In this document: positions 34,121 to 51,296 of the stretch, piece by piece | How positions within the stretch are numbered: the stretch's first letter is position 1 | Layout of the letters: every line of letters begins with the position of its first letter | Source: Mobula hypostoma | Lineage: Eukaryota | Assembly: GCF_963921235.1 (NCBI RefSeq) | Contig: NC_086108.1 | Location: forward strand, 1,116,001 to 1,180,000 | Reading direction: 5' to 3' | Length of the DNA: 64,000 bases | Made by a program: the position numbers and the translations under genes | Notes under the pieces: model-generated | The model's database searches: none | Told to the model about the DNA's origin: nothing | Seen by the model: only the letters and a program-made list of their open reading frames with translations

Positions 34121-37100
34121 TACATGTATACGATTGAAGTGACAATAAGCTTAAACTTGGACTTGCGTATACAGTACTGCTGGTAAACATCTCGGATGGG
34201 TGGAAGAGACCTCAATGGCTAGGCTTGGACTCAATATCCTCTCCAAGTCAGAACCACTGCTGAACGTGAAATATTTTCAGCCAACTACGTCTACATAAAT
34301 CAGACACCTTCTTCCCACTATCCTGGGCCAAAGGGAACAGCATCCAGGAAGACAGCTGTATAGAGCGGGAGTCCGAGTAGAGGGAGTCAGAGTACGAGGG
34401 CATTGACTCAATGGGGCTTCAATGATAATGGATCAAGACGAAGTAAGTTACTTGTGAAAAATAGGATAAGGAAGCTTATCTGCGAGGCCAGTGTTCTGTA
34501 CTGGGCCAGGTTAGGGAACTGGAGATGCAGCTCAATGACCTTCATCTGGTCAGGGACAATGAGGAGGTGATAGATTGGAGCTATAGGCAAGTAGTCACAC
34601 TGGGGCCTTGGGAGACAGATAATTGGGTAACAATCAGGTGAGGGAAGAGCAAGAGTCAGATACTAGAGGCTGTCCCTCTTAACAATAAGTACTCCTGCTT
34701 GAGTACTGTTGGGGGTGGGGGGAAATGACCTACCTGAGGGAAGCAACAGTGGTCGCGCCTCTGGCACAGAGTCTGGCCCTGTGGCTCAGAAGGGTAGGGA
34801 AAGGAAGAGGTTGGCAGCAGTGATAGGGGACTCTATAGTTTGGGGGTCAGACGGGTGATTCTGTGGACACAGGAAAGAAACACAGATGGTAGTTTGCCTC
34901 CCAGCTGCCAGGGTCCGGGATGTTTCTGATCGCGTCCACGATATCCTGAAGTGGGAAGGAGAACAGCCAGAGGTTGTGGTACATATTGATACCAATGACA
35001 AAGGTAGGAAAAGGGAGGAGATCCTGAAAGCAGACTACAGGGAGTTGGGAAAGAAGCTGAGAAGCAGAACCACAAGGGTAAAAATCCCGGGATTACTGCC
35101 TGTGCCACGTGACAGTGAGTATGGGAACAGAGTGAGGTGGAGGATAAATGCGTGGCTGAGGGATTGGAGCAGGGGGCAGGGATTCAAATTTCTGGATCAT
35201 TGGGACCTCTTTTGGGGCAGGCGTGACCTGTACAAAAAGGACGGGTTGCACTCGAGTCCGAGGGGGACCAATATCCTGGCGGGGAGGTTTGCTAAGGCTA
35301 CTGGGGAGAGTTTAAACTAGAATTGCTGGGGGGTGGGAATCGAACTGAAGAGACGGAGGAAGGAATGGTTGGCTCACAAATAGAGAAAGCTTGTAGACAG
35401 TGTGAGAGGAAGGATAGACATGTGATAGAGAAGGGACACGCTCAGACTGATGGTTTGAGATGTGTCTATTTTAATGCAAGGAGTGTCATGAACAAAGTGG
35501 ACGAGCTTAAAGCGTGGATCAGTACTTGGAGCTATGATGTTGTGGCCATTACGCAGACTTGGATGCTCAGGGGCAGGAATGGCTACTTAGAGTGCCAGGC
35601 TTCAGATGTTTCAGAAAGGACAGCCGGGGGGGGATGCAAAAGAGGTGGGGGTGTGGCACTGTTGATCAGAGATAGAGTCACAGCTGCAAAAAAGGAGGAA
35701 GTCATGGAGGGGTTGTCTACTGAGTCTCTACGGGTGGAAGTTAGAAACAGGAAGGGGTCAATAACCACCCAATAGTAACAGGGACATCAAGGAGCAGATA
35801 GGGAGACAGATTCTGGAACGGTGCAATAATAACGGGGTTGTCGTGATGGGAGATTTTAGTTATCCCAGTACCGATTGGTATCTTTCTGGAGTGAGGAGTT
35901 TAGATGGGGTGGAGTTTGTTAGGTGTGTTCAGGAAGGTTTCCTGACTAAAAGAGAAGAGGCTGTACTTGATCTGGTATTGGGAAATGAACCTGGTCAGGT
36001 GTCAGATTTCACAGTGGGAGAGCATTTTGGAGATAGTGATCACAGTTCTATCTACTTTAGCATAGCATTGGAGACGGATAGGAACAGACAAATTAGGAAA
36101 ACGCTTAATTGGAGTAAGGGAAAATTTGAAGCTATCAGGCAGGAACTTGGAAGCATAAATTGGGAAGAAATGTTCTCAGGGAACTGTATAGCAGAAATGT
36201 GGCAAATGTTCAGGGGATATTTGCGTGGAGTTCTGCATAGGTATGTTCCAATGAGACAGGGAAAGGATGGTAGGATATAGGAACCATGATGTACAAAGGC
36301 TGTTGAAAATCTAGTCAAGAAGAAAAGCTTACGAAAGGTTCAAAAAACTAGATACTGATAGATAGCTAGAAAATTATAAGGCTAGCAGGAAAGAGCTTAA
36401 GAATGAAACTAGGAGAGCCAGAAAGGGGCCATGAGAAGGCCTTGGCAAGCAGGATTAAGGAAAATCCCAAGGTATTCTACCAGTATGTGAAGAGCAAGAG
36501 GATAAGACGTGAGAGAATAGGACTAATCAAGTGTGACAGTGGAAAAGTGTGTATGGAACTAGAATAGGTAGCGGAGGTACTTAATGAATACTTTGCTTCA
36601 ATATTCACCATGGAAAAGGACCATGGTGATTGTAGGGATGAGTTAGAGCAGACTGAAAAGCTTGAGCATATAGTCATTAAGAAAGAGGATGTGCTGGAGC
36701 TTTTGGAAAGCATCAAGTTGGATAAACTACTGGGACCGGATGGGATGTACCCCAGGCTACTGTGGGAGGCAAGGGAGGAGATTGCTGAGCCTCTGGTGAT
36801 GATCTTTGCATCATCAATGGGGACGGGAGAGGTTCTGGAGGATTGGAGGGTTGAGGGTGTTGTTCCCTTATTCAAGAAAGGGAGTAGAGATAGCCCAGGA
36901 AATTATAGCCCAGTGAGTCTTACCTCAATGGTTGGTATGTTGATGGAGAAGATCCTGAGAGGCAGAATTTATGAACGTTTGGAGAGGCATAATCTGATTA
37001 GGGATAGTCAGCATAGCTTTGTCAAAGGCAGGTTGTACCTTACCAGCCTGATTGAATTTTTTGAGGATGTGACTAAACACATTGATGAAGGTAGAGCAGT

Positions 37101-43115: not shown

Positions 43116-45628
43116 AATGCAGTGTAGAAAGTATCTTCTGCCCAGCCACAAATCCTTCTCAATGTTATTTGTTCAGCCTCCATACATGCAGATCTAAGTT
43201 ACATAGAAATATAGAAAACCTACAGCATAATACAGGCCCTTCGGCCCACAAAGCTGTGTCAAACATGTCCCTACCTTAGAACTACCTGGGCTTTACCCAT
43301 AGCCCTCTATTTTTCTAAGCTCTATGTAGCCATCCAGGAGTCTCTTCAAAGACCCTATCGTTTCCACCTCCACCACCACCGCTGGTAGCCCATTTCACGC
43401 ACTCACCACTCTCTGCGTAAAAAAACTTATCCCTGACATCTCCTCTGTACCTACTTCCAAGCACCTTAAAACTGTGCCCTCTCATGCTAGCCATTTCAGC
43501 CCTGGGGAAAAGCCTCTGACTACCCACATGATCAATGCCTCTCATTACCTTGTACACCTCTATTAAGTCACCTCTCATCCTCCTGTTTTCGTAAGGCATG
43601 CTCCCCAATCCAGGCAACATCCTTGTAAATCTCCTCTGCACCCTTTCTATGGTTTCCACGTCCTTCCTATAGTGAGGCGACCAGAATTGAGCAGAGTACT
43701 CCAAGTGGGGTCTGACCATGGTCCCATATAGCTGCAACATTACCTCTCGGCTCTTAAGCTCAATCCCACGATTGATGAAGGCCAATGCACCGCACGCCTT
43801 CTTAACCACAGAGTCAACCTGCGTAGCAGCTTGGAGTGTCCTATGGACATGGACCCCAAGATCCCTCTGATCCTCCACGCTGCCAGGAGTCTTACCATTA
43901 ATACTATATTCTGCCATCATATTTGACCTACCAAAATGAACCACCTCACACTTACCTGGGTTGAACTCCATCTGCCACTTCTCAGCCCAGTTTCGCATCC
44001 TATCAATGTCCCACTGTAACCTCTGACAGCCGTCCACACTATCCACAATACCCCCAAACTTGGTGTCATCAGCATATTTACTAACCCATCCCTCCACTTC
44101 CTCATCCAGGTCATTTATAAAAATCAAAAAGAGTAGGGGTCCCAGAACAGATCCCTGAGGCACACCACTGGTCACCGACCTCCATGCAGAATATGACCCG
44201 TCTACAACCACTCTGACCCTGTGGGCAAGCCAGTTCTGGATCCACAAAGCAATGTCCCCTTGGATCCCATGTCTCCTTACTTTCTCAATAAGTCTTGCAT
44301 GGGGTACCTTATCAAATGCCTTGCTGAAATCCATCTACACTACATCTACTGCGCTTCCTTCATCAATGTGTTTAGTCACAACCTCAAAAAATTCAGTCAG
44401 GCTTGTAAGGCATGACCTTCCTTTGACAAACCCTTGCTGACTATTCCTAATCATATTATGCCTCTCCAAATGTTCATAAATCCTGCCTCTCAGAATCTCC
44501 TCCATCAACTTACCAACCACTGAAGTAAGACTCACTGGTCTGTAATTTCCTGGGCTATCTCTACTCCCTTTCTTGAATAAGGGAACAACATCTGCAACCC
44601 TCCAATCCTCCAGAACCTCTCCCATCCCCATTGATGATGCAAAGATCATTGCTAGAGGCTCAGCAATCTCGTCCCTCACCTCCCACAGTAGCCTGGGGTC
44701 CATCCTGTCCGGTCCCGGTGATTTATCCAACTTGATGCTTTCCAAAAGCTCCAGCACATCCTCTTCCTTAATATCTATATGCTCAACCTTTTCAGTTCAC
44801 CGCAAGTCATCCCTACAATCGCCAAGATCCTTTTCCGTAGTGAATACTGAAACAAAGTACTCATTAAGTACCTCCGCTATTTCCTCCTGTTCCATACACA
44901 CTTTTCCACTGTCACATTTGATTGGTCCTATTCTCTCACGTCTTATCCTCTTGCTCTTCACATACTTGTAGAATGCCTTGGTGTTTCCCCTAATCCTGAC
45001 ACCAAGGCCTTCTCATGGCCCCTTCTGGCTCTCCTAATTTCATTCTTAAGCTCCTTCCTGCTAGCCTTATAATTTTCTAGATTCATATCATTACCTAGTT
45101 TTTTGAACCTTTCATAAGCTCTTCTCTTCTTCTCGACTAGATTTACAACAGCCTTTGTACACCACAGATCTTGTACCTACCATCCTTTCCCTGTCTCATT
45201 GGAACGTACCTACTCAGAACCCCACGCAAATATCCCCTGAACATTTGCCACATTTCTTGGGTATGTTTCCCTGGGAACATCTGTTCCCAACTGATGCTTT
45301 TAAGTTCCTGCCTGATAGCCTCATAGTTCCCCTTACTCCAATTAAACATTTCCTTAACTTGTCTGTTCCTATCCCTTTCCAATACTATGGTAAAGCAGAT
45401 AGAATTGTAATCACTATCTCCAAAATGCTCTCCCACTGAGAGACCCGACACCTGACCATGCTCATTTCCCAATACCAGATCAACTACAGCCTCTCTTCTT
45501 ATAGGCTACATATTGTGTCAAGAAACCTTCCTGAACACATCTAACAAACTCCACCCCATCTAAACCCCTCCCTCTAGGGAGATGCCAATCGATATTTTTC
45601 CTGTTTCATTCCTGTAGAATTAGATAGC

Positions 45629-46564
45629 ATGCCTGCAGGGTTGGTGCTTTGTTCAGGGTGTCAGATGTGGGAATCCTGGGAGACTTCCAGCCTCCCTGAT
45701 GGCCACATCTGTGCCAGGTGCACCGAGATGCGGCTCCTCAGAGACCGTGTTAGGGATCTGGAGCTGCAGCTTGATGACCTACTGCTTATCAGGGAAAGTG
45801 AAGAGGTGATAGACAGGAGCTACAGGGAGATAGTCATCCCTAGGCTACAGGGGTCAGAAAACTGGGTGACTGTCAGGAGAGGGAAGGGAAATGCCCAGAC
45901 AGTGGAGAGCACACCTGTGGCTGTCCCCCTCAGCAACAAATATCTTGTTCTGGATGCTGTTGAGGGGGATGACCTGACAGGGGACTCCCACGGTGACCGG
46001 ATCTCTGGCACTGAGCCTGGCGCTGTTGTGCAGGAGAGGAGGAGGGAGAAGAGAAATGCGGTAGTCATAGGGGATTCCATAGTCAGGGGAATGGACAGGA
46101 GATTCTGTGAGTCTGATAGAGATACCTGCATGGTGTGTTGCCTCCCAGGTGCCAGGGTACGGGATGTCTCGGATCGGGTCCTGAATATTCTGAAGGGGGA
46201 GGGTGAGCAGCCAATTGTCTTGGTACATGTTGGTACCAATGACATAGATAGGACAAAGGAGGAGGTCCTGAAGAGAGATTTCTGGGAGTTAGGAAGGAAG
46301 CTGAGAAGCAGGACCTCCAGGGTAGTAATCTCAGGATTGCTACCTGTGCCACGTGCTAGCGAGGGCAAGAATAGTAGGATCAGGCAGATGAATGCGTGGC
46401 TGAGAGACTGGTGCAGGGGACAGGGCTTCAGATTCTTAGATAATTGGGATCTCTTCTGGGGGAAGTATGACCTGTTCAAAAAGGACAGGTTACACCTGAA
46501 TCCGAAGGGGACCAATATCCTGGCGGGAAAGTTTAATAGAGCTGTTAGGGAGGGTTTAAACTAA
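45629..46564 (+). CDS. CR1 ORF1 protein (311 aa): CxxC...CxxC zinc finger, leucine zipper/coiled coil, SGNH esterase domain
   Basis: CSGC...CARC, LRDRVRDLELQLDDL, and GDSIVRG, HVGTND, DRLH blocks; uninterrupted ATG to TAA. Confidence 0.9.
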   Translation: MPAGLVLCSGCQMWESWETSSLPDGHICARCTEMRLLRDRVRDLELQLDDLLLIRESEEVIDRSYREIVIPRLQGSENWVTVRRGKGNAQTVESTPVAVPLSNKYLVLDAVEGDDLTGDSHGDRISGTEPGAVVQERRREKRNAVVIGDSIVRGMDRRFCESDRDTCMVCCLPGARVRDVSDRVLNILKGEGEQPIVLVHVGTNDIDRTKEEVLKRDFWELGRKLRSRTSRVVISGLLPVPRASEGKNSRIRQMNAWLRDWCRGQGFRFLDNWDLFWGKYDLFKKDRLHLNPKGTNILAGKFNRAVREGLN

Positions 46565-46665
46565 TTTGGCAGGGGGATGGGAACCGGAATGATAGAGCAG
46601 AGGAAGGGGAAAACAGAAATAAATCTAAGATAGTGAGCAGTAAAGATGTCAGGAAAGACAGGTAG

Positions 46666-49551
46666 GTGATGGGGCAAATTTGTAGCCATTGGGATGAGTT
46701 GCAGTGCAATAAAGTTGCAGTGGAATCAAAGCGAAAAGTACCAAATACTGGTTTTAAGGTGTTATACTTAAATGCACGCAGCATAAGGAATAAGGTGGAT
46801 GATCTTGTCGTACAGCTACAGATTGGCAGGTATGATACTGTGGCCATCACTGAGACGTGGCTAAAGGATGCATGTCTCTGGGAGCTGAACATCCAAGGAT
46901 ACACGGTGTATCGGAAGGATAGGAAGGTAGGCAGAGGGGGAGGCGTGGCTTTATTGGTAAGAAATGATATTAAATCATTAGAAAGAGGTGATATAGGATC
47001 GGAAGGTGCAGAATCTTTATGGGTTGAACTGCGAAATCGCAGGGGTAAAAGGACCCTGATGGCAGTTATTTATAGGCCTCCAAACAGCTGCAGGAATGTG
47101 GACTACAAATTACAACAGGAAATAGAAAAGGCTTGTCAGAAGGGCAGTGTTATGATAATTGTGGAGGATTTTAACATGCGAGTGGATTGGGAAAATCAGG
47201 TCGGCACTGGATCTCAAGAGAGAGAATTTGTAGAATGTCTGCGAGTTGACTTTTTAGAACAGCTTGTTGTTGAGTCCACTGGGGGATCGGCTGTACTGGA
47301 TTGGGTATTGTGTAATGAACCGGAGGTGATTAGAGAGATTGAGGTGAAGGAACCCTTAGGAGGCAGTGATCATAACATGATTGAGTTTACTGTGAAATTT
47401 GAAAAAGAGAAGGCGAAATCTGATGTGTCGGTATTTCAGTGGAGTAAAGGAAATTACAGTGGCATGAGAGAGGAACTGGCCAAAGTTGACTGGAAAGGGA
47501 CACTGGCAGGAAAGACGGCAGAGCAGCAGTGGCTGGAGTTTATGTGAGAAGTGAGGAAGGTGCAAGACAGGTATATTCCAAAAAAGAAGAAATTTTCGAA
47601 TGGGAAAAGGATGCAACCATGGTTGACAAGAGAAGTCAAACCCAAAGTTAAAGCAAAGGAGAGGGCATACAAGGAAGCAAAAATTAGTGGGAAGACAGAG
47701 GATTGGGAAGTCTTTAAAACCTTACAAAAGGAAACCAAGAAGGTCATTAAGAGGGAAAAGATTAACTATGAAAGGAAGCTGGCAAATAATATCAAAGAGG
47801 ATACTAAAAGCTTTTTCAAGTATATAAAGAGTAAAAGACAGGTGAGAGTAGATATAGGACCGATAGAAAATGATGCTGGAGAAATTGTAATGGGAGATAA
47901 GGAGATGGTGGAGGAACTGAACGAGTATTTTGCATCAGTCTTCACTGAGGAAGACATCAGCAGCATACCGGACACTCAAGGGTGGCAGGGAAGAGAAGTG
48001 TGCGCAGTCACAATTACGACACAGAAAGTACTCAGGAAGCTGAATAGTCTAAGGGTAGATAAATCTCCTGGACCAGATGGAATGCACCCTCGTGTTCTGA
48101 AGGAAGTAGCTGTGGAGATTGCGGCGGCATTAGCGACGATCTTTCAAACGTCGATAGATTCTGGCATGGTTCCGGAGGACTGGAAGATTGCAAATGTCAC
48201 TCCGCTATTTAAGAAGGGGGCAAGGAAGCAAAAAGGAAATTATAGACCTGTTAGCTTGACATTGGTGGTTGGGAAGTTGTTGGAGTCGATTGTCAAGGAT
48301 GAGGTTACAGAGTACCTAGAGGCATATGACAAGATAGACAGAACTCAGCATGGATTCCTTAAAGGAAAATCCTGCCCGACAAACCTATTACAATTTTTTG
48401 AGGAAATTACCAGTAGGCTAGACAAGGGAGATGCAGTGGATGTTGTATATTTGGATTTTCAGAAGGCCTTTGACAAGGTGCCACACATGAGGCTACTTAA
48501 CAAGATAAGAGCTCATGAAATTACGGGAAAGTTACATACGTGGATAGAGCGTTGGCGATTGGCAGGAAACAGAGAGTGGGAATAAAGGGATCCTATTCTG
48601 GTTGGCTGCCGGTTACCAGTGGTGTTCCACAGGGGTCCATGTTGGGGCCGATCCTTTTTACATTGTACATCAATGATTTGGATTATGGAACAGATGGCTT
48701 TGTGGCTAAGTTTGCTGACGATACGAAGATAGGTGGAGGGGCCGGTAGTGCTGAGGAAACGGGGAGTCTGCAGAGAGACTTGGATAGATTGGAAGAATGG
48801 GCAAAGAAGTGGCAAATGAAATACAATGTTGGAAAGTGTATGGTTATGCACTTTGGCAGAAGAAAGAAACGGGCAGACTATTATTTAAATGGGGAAAGAA
48901 TTCAAAGTTCTGAGATGCAACGGGACTTGGGAGTCCTCGTACAGGATACCCTTAAGGTTAACCTCCAGGTTGAGTCGGTAGTGAAGAAGGTGAATGCAAT
49001 GTTGGCATTCATTTCTAGAGGAATAGAATATAGGAGCAGGGATGTGATGTTGAGGCTCTATAAGGCGCTGGTGAGACCTCACTTGGAGTACTGTGGGCAG
49101 TTTTGGTCTCCTTATTTAAGAAAGGATGTGCTGACGTTGGAGAGGGTACAGAGAAGATTCACTAGAATGATTCTGGGAATGAGAGGGTTAACATATGAGG
49201 AACGTTTGTCCGCTCTTGGACTGTATTCCTTGGAGTTTAGAAGAGTGAGGGGAGACCTCATAGAAATATTTCGAATGTCGAAAGGCATGGACAGAGTGGA
49301 TGTGGCAAAGTTGTTTCCCATGATGGGGGAGTCTAGTACGAGAGGGCATGACTTAAGGATTGAAGGGCGCCCATTCAGAACAGAAATGCGAAGAAATTTT
49401 TTTTAGTCAGAGGGTGGTGAATCTATGGAATTTGTTGCCACGGACAGCAGTGGAGGCCAAGTCATTGGGTGTATTTAAGGCAGAGATTGATAGGTATCTG
49501 AGTAGCCAGGGCATCAAAGGCTATGGTGAGAAGGTGGGGGAGTGGGACTAA
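46666..49551 (+). pseudogene. CR1 ORF2 (AP endonuclease plus reverse transcriptase), disrupted
   Basis: Consecutive ORF pieces 46666-47547, 47551-48585 and 48540-49406 with ETW, GGGV, SDH, YRPVSL, DFQKAFD, GVPQGS and FADD motifs. Confidence 0.92.
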
Positions 49552-50127
49552 ATGGGAGAATGGATCTGCTCATGATAAAATGGCGGAGCAGACCCGATGG
49601 GCCGAATGGCCGACTTCTGCTCCTTTGTCTTATGGTCTTATGATATTTGAGAAATTAAACTCTCCCACCACAGCAACCCTGTTATTATTACTCCTTTCCA
49701 GAATCTGTCTCCCTATCTGTTCCTCGATGTCCCTGTTACTATTGGGTGGTCTATAAAAAACACCCAGTAGATTTATTGCCACCTTCCTATTCCTAACTTC
49801 CAGCCACAGAGACTCCGTAGACAACCCCTCCATGACTTCCTGCTTTTTTGCAGCCGTGACACTCTCTCTGATTAACAGTGCCATGCCCCCACCTCTTTTG
49901 CCTCCCTCCCTGTCCTTTCTGAAATATCTAAAGCCTGGCACTTGAAGTTGCTGATTTATGCCACACCTTGTGTCACCACTATAGTGTGGGCACCTCTGGA
50001 CAACGTCCACTATTATGTCCCACCCCTTGATCACAAACCAAACAAGCTCAAGTTAATTTTTTTCCCCACTTATGATTCAGGATAACTCCTGCTAAACTTC
50101 CACGTTAATTACCTTTTTAAATCAGAA

Positions 50128-51296
50128 TCTGAAGCCTGTCGGTCAGAGTCGACCATGAATAATGCATCTTAGCTTTCTAGATATGCAAGCCATATATAAC
50201 CATATAACCATATAACAATTACAGCATGGAAACAGGCCATCTCGGCCTTTTTAATCCGTGCTGAACTCTTACTCTCACCTAGTCCCACCGACCTGCACTC
50301 AGCCCATAACCCTCCATTCCTTTCCTGTCCATATATCTATCCAATTTAACTTTAAATGACAACATCGAACCTGCCTCAACCACTTCTGCTGGAAGCTCGT
50401 TCCACACAGCCACCACTCTCTGAGTAAAGAAGTTCCCCCTCATGTTACCCCTAAACTTTTGCCCTTTAACTCTGAACTCATGTCCTCTTGTTCGAATCTT
50501 CCCCACTCTCAATGGAAAAAGCCTATCCACGTCAACTCTATCTATCCCTCTCATAATTTTAAACACCTCTATCAAGTCCCTCCTCAACCTTCTGCGTTCC
50601 AAAGAATAAAGACCCAACTTGTTCAACCTTTCTCTGTAACTTAGGAGATGAAACCCAGGCAACATTCTAGTAAATCTTCTCTGTACTCTCTCTATTTTGT
50701 TGACATCTTTCCTATAATTCGGTGACCAGAACTGTACACAATACTCCAAATTTGGCCTCACCAATGCCTTGTCCAATTTCAACATGACATCGCAGCGCAA
50801 TACAACATGGAGAGCAAGCTGTTGCCCATGTAGCAAGCTCCCCCTCTCCACGCATCTGATGAACCCAAAGGAACAGCAGAGACCGATACAGTTTGGTACC
50901 AGCAGTGTCGCAGGAGTTGCCAGTCAGCGTTGAACTCAACTTAGGGACACTAGCTACGGACTTTTCCCTCAGAGTTTACTCCCACAGCCTTCCCCGAGAG
51001 TGGTATATCTGCAAGCTAGTCGAGGGTTGAGATCAGTTCTTCCTTCTCCATCTGAGCTGCCAATCACGGCTGATGAGCCCCGTCTGCCCGAAGCAAAGGT
51101 TTTAAGGCGCCAGTAATCCGCCTTTGCCCCTCCTGTCAGTAGAATTGGTTCAACTGGGCATAGTAGCGAAGCCACACATGAAGGCGAGGAGCCGGACTTG
51201 GTTGTCAGAGGTTATTTGAGTCACACGTCATTGTTTAATAGGTCATGGGAGCTTGTCCCCATTACCAACCCTGCCTATAACAACCTTAAGAAACCC
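50128..51296 (-). mobile_element. Second copy of the 33589 element, interrupted by a CR1 3' fragment (~50192-50790, minus, (TATATGGT)n tail)
   Basis: Shared ggttgttatag...ggtaatgg..acaagctccca...ctactgacaggag text; ORF 50279-50851 is a CR1 C-terminus. Confidence 0.75.

Follow-up and report, generated by a model that had tools for sequence, protein, structure and literature searches.

A conserved slippery heptamer at the ORF1-ORF2 junction of CR1 retrotransposons and its probable use in -1 ribosomal frameshifting

How the second open reading frame (ORF) of a long interspersed nuclear element (LINE) is translated is a long-standing question. ORF2 of LINE-1 (L1) is ascribed to an ill-understood termination-reinitiation, and the mechanism is called unclear or open (PMC3894237, PMC3708506). 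CR1-group elements are described as the dominant retrotransposons of most vertebrates (PMC13343379). The question is raised for CR1 by a stretch of 64,000 nucleotides from the ray Mobula hypostoma (NC_086108.1, positions 1,116,001 to 1,180,000 of the forward strand; hereafter the window), which carries a decayed copy of what looks like a CR1-type LINE at 45593..49643. We call this copy element A and its family, family A. ORF1 of element A encodes an esterase-type protein (ORF1p), and ORF2, which encodes a linker, an endonuclease (EN) and a reverse transcriptase (RT), lies in the -1 frame behind it. An earlier note, made from the letters of the window, had suggested that the two frames are joined by gag-pol-like frameshifting. 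Nucleotide conservation from rays to birds and the anatomy of the junction, described below, suggest that a programmed -1 ribosomal frameshift probably yields an ORF1p-ORF2p fusion in CR1. If this is true, an esterase-EN-RT fusion protein is predicted, and a slippery site kept from cartilaginous fish to birds would give the CR1 group a retrovirus-like, directly testable expression mechanism.

The junction in element A

All features described for the window are on the plus strand unless stated otherwise. ORF1 of element A (45629..46564; 311 amino acids (aa) and the stop) ends with the zero-frame codons GGT (46553), TTA (46556), AAC (46559) and TAA (46562). Therefore, the heptamer T_TTA_AAC (46555..46561) stands in the X_XXY_YYZ phase, and the ORF1 stop TAA (46562..46564) is directly 3' of it. 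The -1 frame, which is that of ORF2 (46549..49551), is closed by a TAG at 46546..46548, 6 nucleotides (nt) upstream of the heptamer, and the same distance is found in 10 of the 12 copies listed. It then reads GGFKLIWQGDGNRNDR... up to a TAG at 46663..46665 and continues as VMGQ...YLNARS into the Exo_endo_phos and RVT_1 domains. YLNARS, the first endonuclease motif of ORF2, is located at 46765..46782, 70 codons past the heptamer. The first ATG in the ORF2 frame (46669..46671) lies 105 nt past the ORF1 stop, and its position varies between families. A G-rich tract, GGGGGATGGGA, occupies 46572..46582 and starts 10 nt past the heptamer; it consists of G5 at 46572-46576 and GGG at 46579-46581, and is a candidate 3' stimulator. 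The earlier note had described an in-phase TTTAAAC immediately before the ORF1 stop, an ORF2 frame opening at 46549 after the TAG at 46546, and a G-rich tract after the stop. The codon read-out of 46553-46564 confirmed the first of these, and the other two held as well.

The TAG at 46663 had been taken for a decayed CAG, and this proved correct. Among the best 30 of at least 4445 candidates in the genome (3.48 Gb searched; the 30 matches are 96.7-100% identical), column 46663 is C in 27 and T in 3, so that these 27 copies read CAG. In Logan contigs from four public runs, T>C at 46663 takes 454.5/454.5, 79.5/79.5, 187/187 and 107170/107223 of the depth, that is, about 100% in all four. These runs come from four organisms with the molecule type unspecified; their contigs bear on sequence and not on expression or splicing, and contig joints in them are single-contig only. 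Of the 24 runs listed, none was an RNA holder. The TAG is thus a private CAG>TAG mutation of this copy, and the codon is sense in nearly all copies. Because of this TAG, another in-frame stop at 47545 and two frameshifts further downstream, element A itself is a dead copy.

As a measure of chance, within the window an XXXYYYZ heptamer followed by a stop ends 6 of the 583 stop-to-stop ORFs of at least 50 aa, and two of these six are the CR1 ORF1s. From base composition, TTTAAAC is expected at any one site with a frequency of 8e-5. The background rate of an incidental canonical heptamer is about 1% or less.

Conservation from rays to birds

A second family in the window, family B, carries the same junction. 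The C-terminal part of its ORF1 (34859..35320), which shares 63% aa identity with that of element A, ends AGT TTA AAC TAG; the heptamer T_TTA_AAC (35311..35317) is in phase and the stop follows directly at 35318-35320. A G-rich tract, GGGGGGTGGG, lies at 35328..35337, again 10 nt past the heptamer, and the -1 frame (35296..35775) stays open from 15 nt ahead of the heptamer, past YFNARS and on into the endonuclease. Four further families came from protein-guided searches of this genome, and their ORF1s end GGT TTA AAC TAA (family C), GAT TTA AAC TAA (D), GCT TTA AAC TAG (E) and GGT TTA AAC TAG (F). We scored 73 genomic loci from five families, taken as the best-scoring matches rather than at random. 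Of the 73, 69 have an intact heptamer, and in 69 a TAA or TAG stands directly 3' of the heptamer position. Between the heptamer and the first EN motif, the -1 frame is uninterrupted in 47 copies, with linkers of 47 to 108 codons; 12 copies have a stop there, and 14 show no in-frame EN motif. In most ray copies examined, the -1 frame opens 6-27 nt upstream of the heptamer.

More distant relatives were obtained by scanning metagenomes with the ORF1 alignment, which gave 33 loci, 14 of which were analysed. Three of the 14 (L035, L037 and L040) have an intact junction, and the remainder are at contig edges or decayed. ORF1 of these three is about 30% identical to the ray protein, and the closest named relatives are bird proteins. 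All three end (T/G)CT TTA AAC TAG, and their -1 frame is open into YTNARSMGNKQEELE. The decayed locus L032 retains gctttaaacTAG followed by a G-rich tract. A search of genome contigs gave five loci that were set aside as apparent bacterial SGNH hydrolases or too-short pieces, and the search for related loci found none in viral contigs.

We aligned the junctions of nine lineages, namely the ray families A-F and the bird-type loci L035, L037 and L040 (alignment A3). TTTAAACTA is invariant in 9/9 lineages, whereas conservation is loose over the 45 nt of ORF1 that precede it. After the heptamer, TA is invariant in all nine and TGA is never seen. Within the G-tract, columns G60, G63, G64, G66 and G70-72 are invariant, and the G-run starts 10 nt past the heptamer in eight lineages and 9 nt past it in L035. 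Conservation sets in sharply with the first base of the heptamer and takes in the stop, and in all lineages examined ORF2 occupies the -1 frame. Among these diverged relatives, the shift site is conserved beyond what the protein requires.

The Logan contigs give independent evidence of such an island. No variant of at least 10% is found in the contigs of the four runs between 46542 and 46584, and contig depth rises 3-10 fold over 46546-46581. Many contigs match the island alone, with loose ends at 46537-46549 and 46582-46595. Because the ends are loose on both sides, the island is common to otherwise diverged families. Among the variants between contigs downstream of the tract, third codon positions are not clearly over-represented, and a single CpG accounts for two of the sites; the pattern is neutral with respect to coding.

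At the protein level, the heptamer corresponds to a C-terminal Leu-Asn (LN). LN ends 71 of the 120 listed homologues of the ray ORF1 and 86 of 117 further proteins found with a bird-type esterase, hence 157 of 237 in total; most of the non-LN homologues are truncated or chimeric/fused gene models. No p-value is given because the homologue rows are phylogenetically non-independent. The LN-ending proteins come from rays, sharks, Latimeria, a mormyrid, a frog, turtles, lizards, an alligator and many bird orders. In 154 of the 157 proteins, LN is preceded by G, A, S, T, C, Y, D, L, F or V, for all of which a U-ending codon is possible; in the other three, it is preceded by E. The final two residues are (nearly) invariant in the protein alignment (A1), whereas the preceding ten are variable. 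In the DNA, the two codons are TTA and AAC with a T before them in all lineages. Among the Leu codons of vertebrates, TTA is rare. This fixed choice of codons, together with the rarity of TTA, suggests constraint at the nucleotide rather than the protein level. In a group of cyprinids, the esterase-type ORF1 proteins (27-28% identical; P0100, P0103, P0106, P0110, P0111, P0114, P0115, P0118 and P0120) end ...SLRTET or similar. Because this group ends in ...ET and not in ...LN, the heptamer is not universal among LINEs with an esterase-type ORF1.

Start codons of ORF2 show no comparable conservation. The first AUG in the ORF2 frame, with codons counted from the heptamer, is codon 39 in family A, 19 in B and C, 4 in D, 5 in L035 and L037, and 23 in L040; in family F it is at about codon 88 or later, and in family E at about codon 104. 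In E and F, the first AUG is beyond YFNARS and ISETW, inside the endonuclease. In APE-type endonucleases, these two motifs hold catalytic residues. Family E is very young, with at least 99% identity over a 401-nt junction probe in every one of the 40 scored matches, the best 40 of 1870 candidates. Eight family E copies were fetched, and all eight keep GCT TTA AAC TAG and an open -1 frame over all 102 codons examined. Seven of the eight contain no AUG in this frame, and the eighth has one only within the endonuclease. The open -1 frame thus offers no AUG ahead of the EN motifs, which excludes ordinary AUG initiation of ORF2 in family E; the lack of an AUG before these motifs excludes it in family F as well. 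A different arrangement is seen in family D (loci L093, L094 and L107), where the junction reads GAT TTA AAC TAA TGT GG... and the stop and an ORF2-frame AUG overlap as UAAUG, in addition to the slippery heptamer. In L035 and L037, an ORF2-frame AUG is 5-8 nt past the stop. An AUG that overlaps the stop or follows it by a few nt is confined to D, L035 and L037, and is not found in A, B, C, E, F or L040. The junction also warns annotators against taking the first AUG as the start of CR1 ORF2.

Each comparative prediction of the earlier note came out in its favour. The heptamer is nucleotide-invariant across the 9/9 diverged lineages aligned; position 46663 is a sense codon in nearly all copies; the -1 frame has no fixed stop between the heptamer and EN, since 47 of the 73 ray copies are open and the remainder carry scattered private defects; and a conserved ORF2 ATG is absent, as the position of the first AUG differs by family and is inside the endonuclease in E and F.

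A probable frameshift and its rivals

We propose the following model. CR1 RNA would be bicistronic, and ORF2 would be reached by -1 slippage at the last two sense codons of ORF1. The majority of ribosomes would decode ...GGU UUA AAC, reach UAA or UAG and release the esterase-type ORF1p. A minority would slip, with the P-site tRNA moving from UUA to UUU and the A-site tRNA from AAC to AAA; alternatively, the tRNA-Asn on AAC could move back while the stop codon is in the A site. Slipped ribosomes would then be in the ORF2 frame and go on at CUA.... With tandem slippage, the expected fusion sequence is ...G-L-N-L-I-W-Q..., and ...G-F-K-L... is the conceptual -1 translation only. The product would be an ORF1p-linker-endonuclease-RT fusion of about 1,300 aa, made at a low ORF2:ORF1 ratio like that of Gag-Pol. 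The stop next to the heptamer is a likely stimulator, as is the conserved G-rich tract that lies 10 nt downstream; the tract would probably act as a linear element or via a bound factor, possibly as a G-quadruplex, rather than as a pseudoknot.

U_UUA_AAC is listed with the most shift-prone heptamers on mammalian ribosomes and is the site of infectious bronchitis virus (IBV), in line with the coronavirus-type site named in the earlier note (PMC5009743). CR1 shares with IBV ORF1a/1b and with retroviral and long terminal repeat (LTR) gag-pol the slippery heptamer, in zero-frame phase (PMC5009743), a downstream polymerase ORF in the -1 frame that has no start codon of its own, and an expected minor fusion product that would set the structural-to-enzyme ratio. 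Unlike these systems, CR1 has no predicted pseudoknot or stem-loop, its zero-frame stop abuts the heptamer, and conserved 3' elements are limited to a linear G-rich tract at a distance of 10 nt. CR1 also differs from them in being a non-LTR LINE with an esterase-type ORF1 and no protease. For the tract, the closest analogy is nsp2TF in the virus behind porcine reproductive and respiratory syndrome (PRRSV), in which a CCCANCUCC motif 11 nt 3' of the shift site is bound by nsp1-beta and PCBP (PMC5009743). Both are linear, unstructured 3' elements about 10-11 nt from the shift site, but the CR1 motif is G-rich and not C-rich, and is not known to bind a protein. A precedent among LINEs is provided by TRE5-A and TRE3-A of Dictyostelium, for which a -1 frameshift is stated to be required for ORF2 (PMC5911963). 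Like CR1, they are APE-type non-LTR retrotransposons, but they belong to another LINE clade and another host kingdom and have no esterase ORF1. On the comparative evidence, it seems likely that the CR1 junction is a case of gag-pol-like programmed -1 frameshifting, a known class of mechanism, with an unusual candidate stimulator.

Several observations speak against frameshifting. Folding predicts neither a stem-loop nor a pseudoknot downstream: five sequences taken singly fold no better than shuffled ones (z-scores +1.10, +1.69, +1.62, -0.02 and +0.39), and RNAalifold finds 0 consensus pairs over the nine lineages. A two-layer G-quadruplex on the conserved tract is predicted in only 2/9 lineages, and the G-run begins 9-10 nt past the heptamer, farther than the usual 5-9 nt. 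We know of no protease in LINEs that would free ORF2p from the fusion. The UAAUG of family D and the AUG 5-8 nt past the stop in L035 and L037 would also suit termination-reinitiation. Only one of 62 loci is open over the entire stretch examined, after an ORF1 filter that dropped many copies, and the sampled copies are therefore mostly dead. Every set of copies was made up of the matches with the highest scores and not drawn at random. An Rfam scan of 46450-46750 with E up to 1 gave nothing beyond a 13-nt chance match.

Given that folding predicts no paired element, any stimulator would be the conserved linear G-tract. Both Gly codons in the tract are GGG in every lineage (in family C, in typical copies), which suggests constraint at the RNA level, and the tract may play a role in frameshifting. 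It may represent a new type of unstructured frameshift stimulator. More speculatively, the active RT of CR1 across vertebrates could be the ORF1p-ORF2p fusion itself, with the frameshift driven by the linear G-rich element via a bound protein or a G-quadruplex; we regard this extended version as tentative and rather unlikely. The bound protein would be a host G-tract binder, or fresh ORF1p giving feedback on ORF2 synthesis. G-quadruplexes stimulate frameshifting in synthetic constructs, and their natural use was "not currently known but anticipated" in 2016 (PMC5009743). If the extended version is true, the element would be a natural G-rich or G-quadruplex stimulator of frameshifting.

The serious rival is termination-reinitiation, in which ribosomes would stop at UAA or UAG, the 40S subunit would be held by the G-rich island, perhaps by contacts with rRNA or factors, and translation would restart nearby at an AUG or a near-cognate codon to give a separate ORF2p, a route proposed for L1 and demonstrated for SART1. 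We consider it unlikely as the explanation of the junction, and it could coexist with frameshifting. It needs no protease, and it agrees with the UAAUG of family D, with the AUG 5-8 nt past the stop in L035 and L037, and with the UUG, CUG or AUU found no more than three codons from the stop in most ray families. Reportedly, the title of a paper by Haas et al. is also in keeping with an AUG at or near the ORF1 stop. The UGGGA or GGGA in the G-tract is the core of motif 1 of the calicivirus termination upstream ribosome-binding site (TURBS), and we count it for this explanation. TURBS elements lie upstream of the stop, whereas the G-tract is downstream of it. Termination-reinitiation also leaves unexplained the exact in-phase X_XXY_YYZ invariance from rays to birds, including the preceding third base. 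In L040, the first 22 codons contain no AUG and no obvious near-cognate, and families E and F lack any AUG upstream of the EN motifs. LINE precedents exist in SART1, with a UAAUG and downstream structure, and in the AUG-independent ORF2 of L1 (PMC3894237, PMC3708506, PMC5009743). CR1 resembles these in its bicistronic LINE RNA with close ORFs, the UAAUG of family D and the near-stop AUG of the bird-type copies, but most CR1 families lack an AUG near the stop and two lack one before the catalytic residues. The SART1 and L1 mechanisms, moreover, involve no invariant slippery heptamer (PMC3894237, PMC3708506, PMC5009743).

The remaining explanations give the slippery pattern no part in translation by slippage. 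The island might be kept for something else in the RNA or DNA, for instance as an internal promoter, for ORF1p binding or packaging, or as an entry site, of the kind seen at internal ribosome entry sites, for initiating ORF2 internally without an AUG, so that the slippery pattern would be incidental. The conserved block indeed runs past the heptamer into a G-rich tract without predicted structure, and ORF2 translation of non-LTR elements is called an open question, by one research group (PMC3894237, PMC3708506). Such an unrelated element is nevertheless very unlikely: the block that is conserved has its boundary precisely at the heptamer's first base, and it includes the stop. The ORF2 frame, which opens 6-27 nt upstream in most ray copies and is the -1 frame in every lineage, and the low background rate of incidental canonical heptamers (about 1% or less) also argue against it. 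Least probable of all, and barely credible in our judgement, is that ORF1p requires a C-terminal Leu-Asn as a protein and that ORF2 starts at its first AUG. The final dipeptide in 157 of the 237 listed homologues would agree with such a need. However, a purely protein-level need is contradicted by the fixed codons (TTA, AAC and the preceding T in 9/9 lineages), and the first AUG varies in position between families and is inside the endonuclease in E and F.

We found no description of frameshifting in CR1 in a search of the full-text literature, although a remark in the primary CR1 papers of 1993-2003 is possible. In the available excerpts, a review of non-LTR protein biogenesis does not use the word frameshift (PMC3894237), and frameshifting is not mentioned in a 2026 survey of the CR1 group (PMC13343379), in an ORF1 survey of 448 Jockey-superfamily elements (PMC4120745) or in a paper on amniote CR1 (PMC4316615). 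The excerpts of a large recoding review, in turn, do not mention CR1 (PMC5009743). In practice, the junction would give a simple sequence criterion for potentially competent CR1 copies.

Element A, its surroundings and related gene models

Element A is about 4.05 kb long, with the domains recognized by Pfam. Its 5' end at 45593 is common to 16 of 29 sister copies, and its 3' end is approximate, with a CR1-type tail ...tcttatggtcttatga. The 5' untranslated region is only 36 nt (45593-45628), and the ORF1 ATG is at 45629 within a stop-to-stop span of 45578..46564. ORF1 has a Cys-rich/coiled N-terminus, an SGNH esterase domain and a C-terminus ...REGLN. It is of the SGNH/GDSL esterase type (Pfam Lipase_GDSL_2, 1.2e-13; OSK, 5.1e-08), and its closest named relative is a ray ORF1-like protein with 87% identity. 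ORF2, which was taken from the ORF list and Pfam, has Exo_endo_phos / Exo_endo_phos_2 (the APE endonuclease) followed by RVT_1 (the reverse transcriptase), and is broken by a stop at 47545-47547 and by frameshifts near 48519-48585 and near 49357-49406. The assignment to the CR1 clade is tentative; it comes indirectly from the named bird, turtle and crocodilian relatives of ORF1, which are of the sort prevalent in CR1-rich genomes, and from the CR1-like tail.

Several database entries match the ORF1 or cross the junction. A "SGNH/GDSL hydrolase family protein [Pseudomonas aeruginosa]" on a 4159-bp contig (P0022) is 60% identical to the ray ORF1 and ends ...REGLN; it looks like contamination of a bacterial assembly by vertebrate DNA. 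Gene models that carry host names also match CR1 ORF1 (P0028, P0075, P0076, P0147, P0167, P0214, P0220 and P0225), the names including a ribosomal protein S24 isoform, TMEM204 isoforms, PDZ and LIM domain 5, and RAD23B-like. These are apparently mis-annotated exons. Other models cross the junction in the ORF2 frame (P0035, P0228, P0230-P0233 and P0235): the stingray model reads ...REGFKLNLQGAG..., and those of stork and crane read ...SFKLDSKGEGDN... into EN-RT. They may be indel-bearing copies or may reflect frame correction by the annotator; either is possible. In the ray genome itself, a few ORF1 matches have open frames of 474-707 aa compared with about 319 (for example C52:78983350-78984285 and C18:184805993-184806937), in which an indel may fuse ORF1 to ORF2 in one frame.

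Element A lies in a dense nest of CR1 fragments, which occupies 1200-63900 of the window on both strands. A tblastn search of the window with four pieces of the element A ORFs gave 60 further matches to RT, EN or ORF1 segments, with 24-75% identity. Among them, a 5'-truncated copy on the minus strand (43315-45656) adjoins element A, and another is located at 49630-50923.

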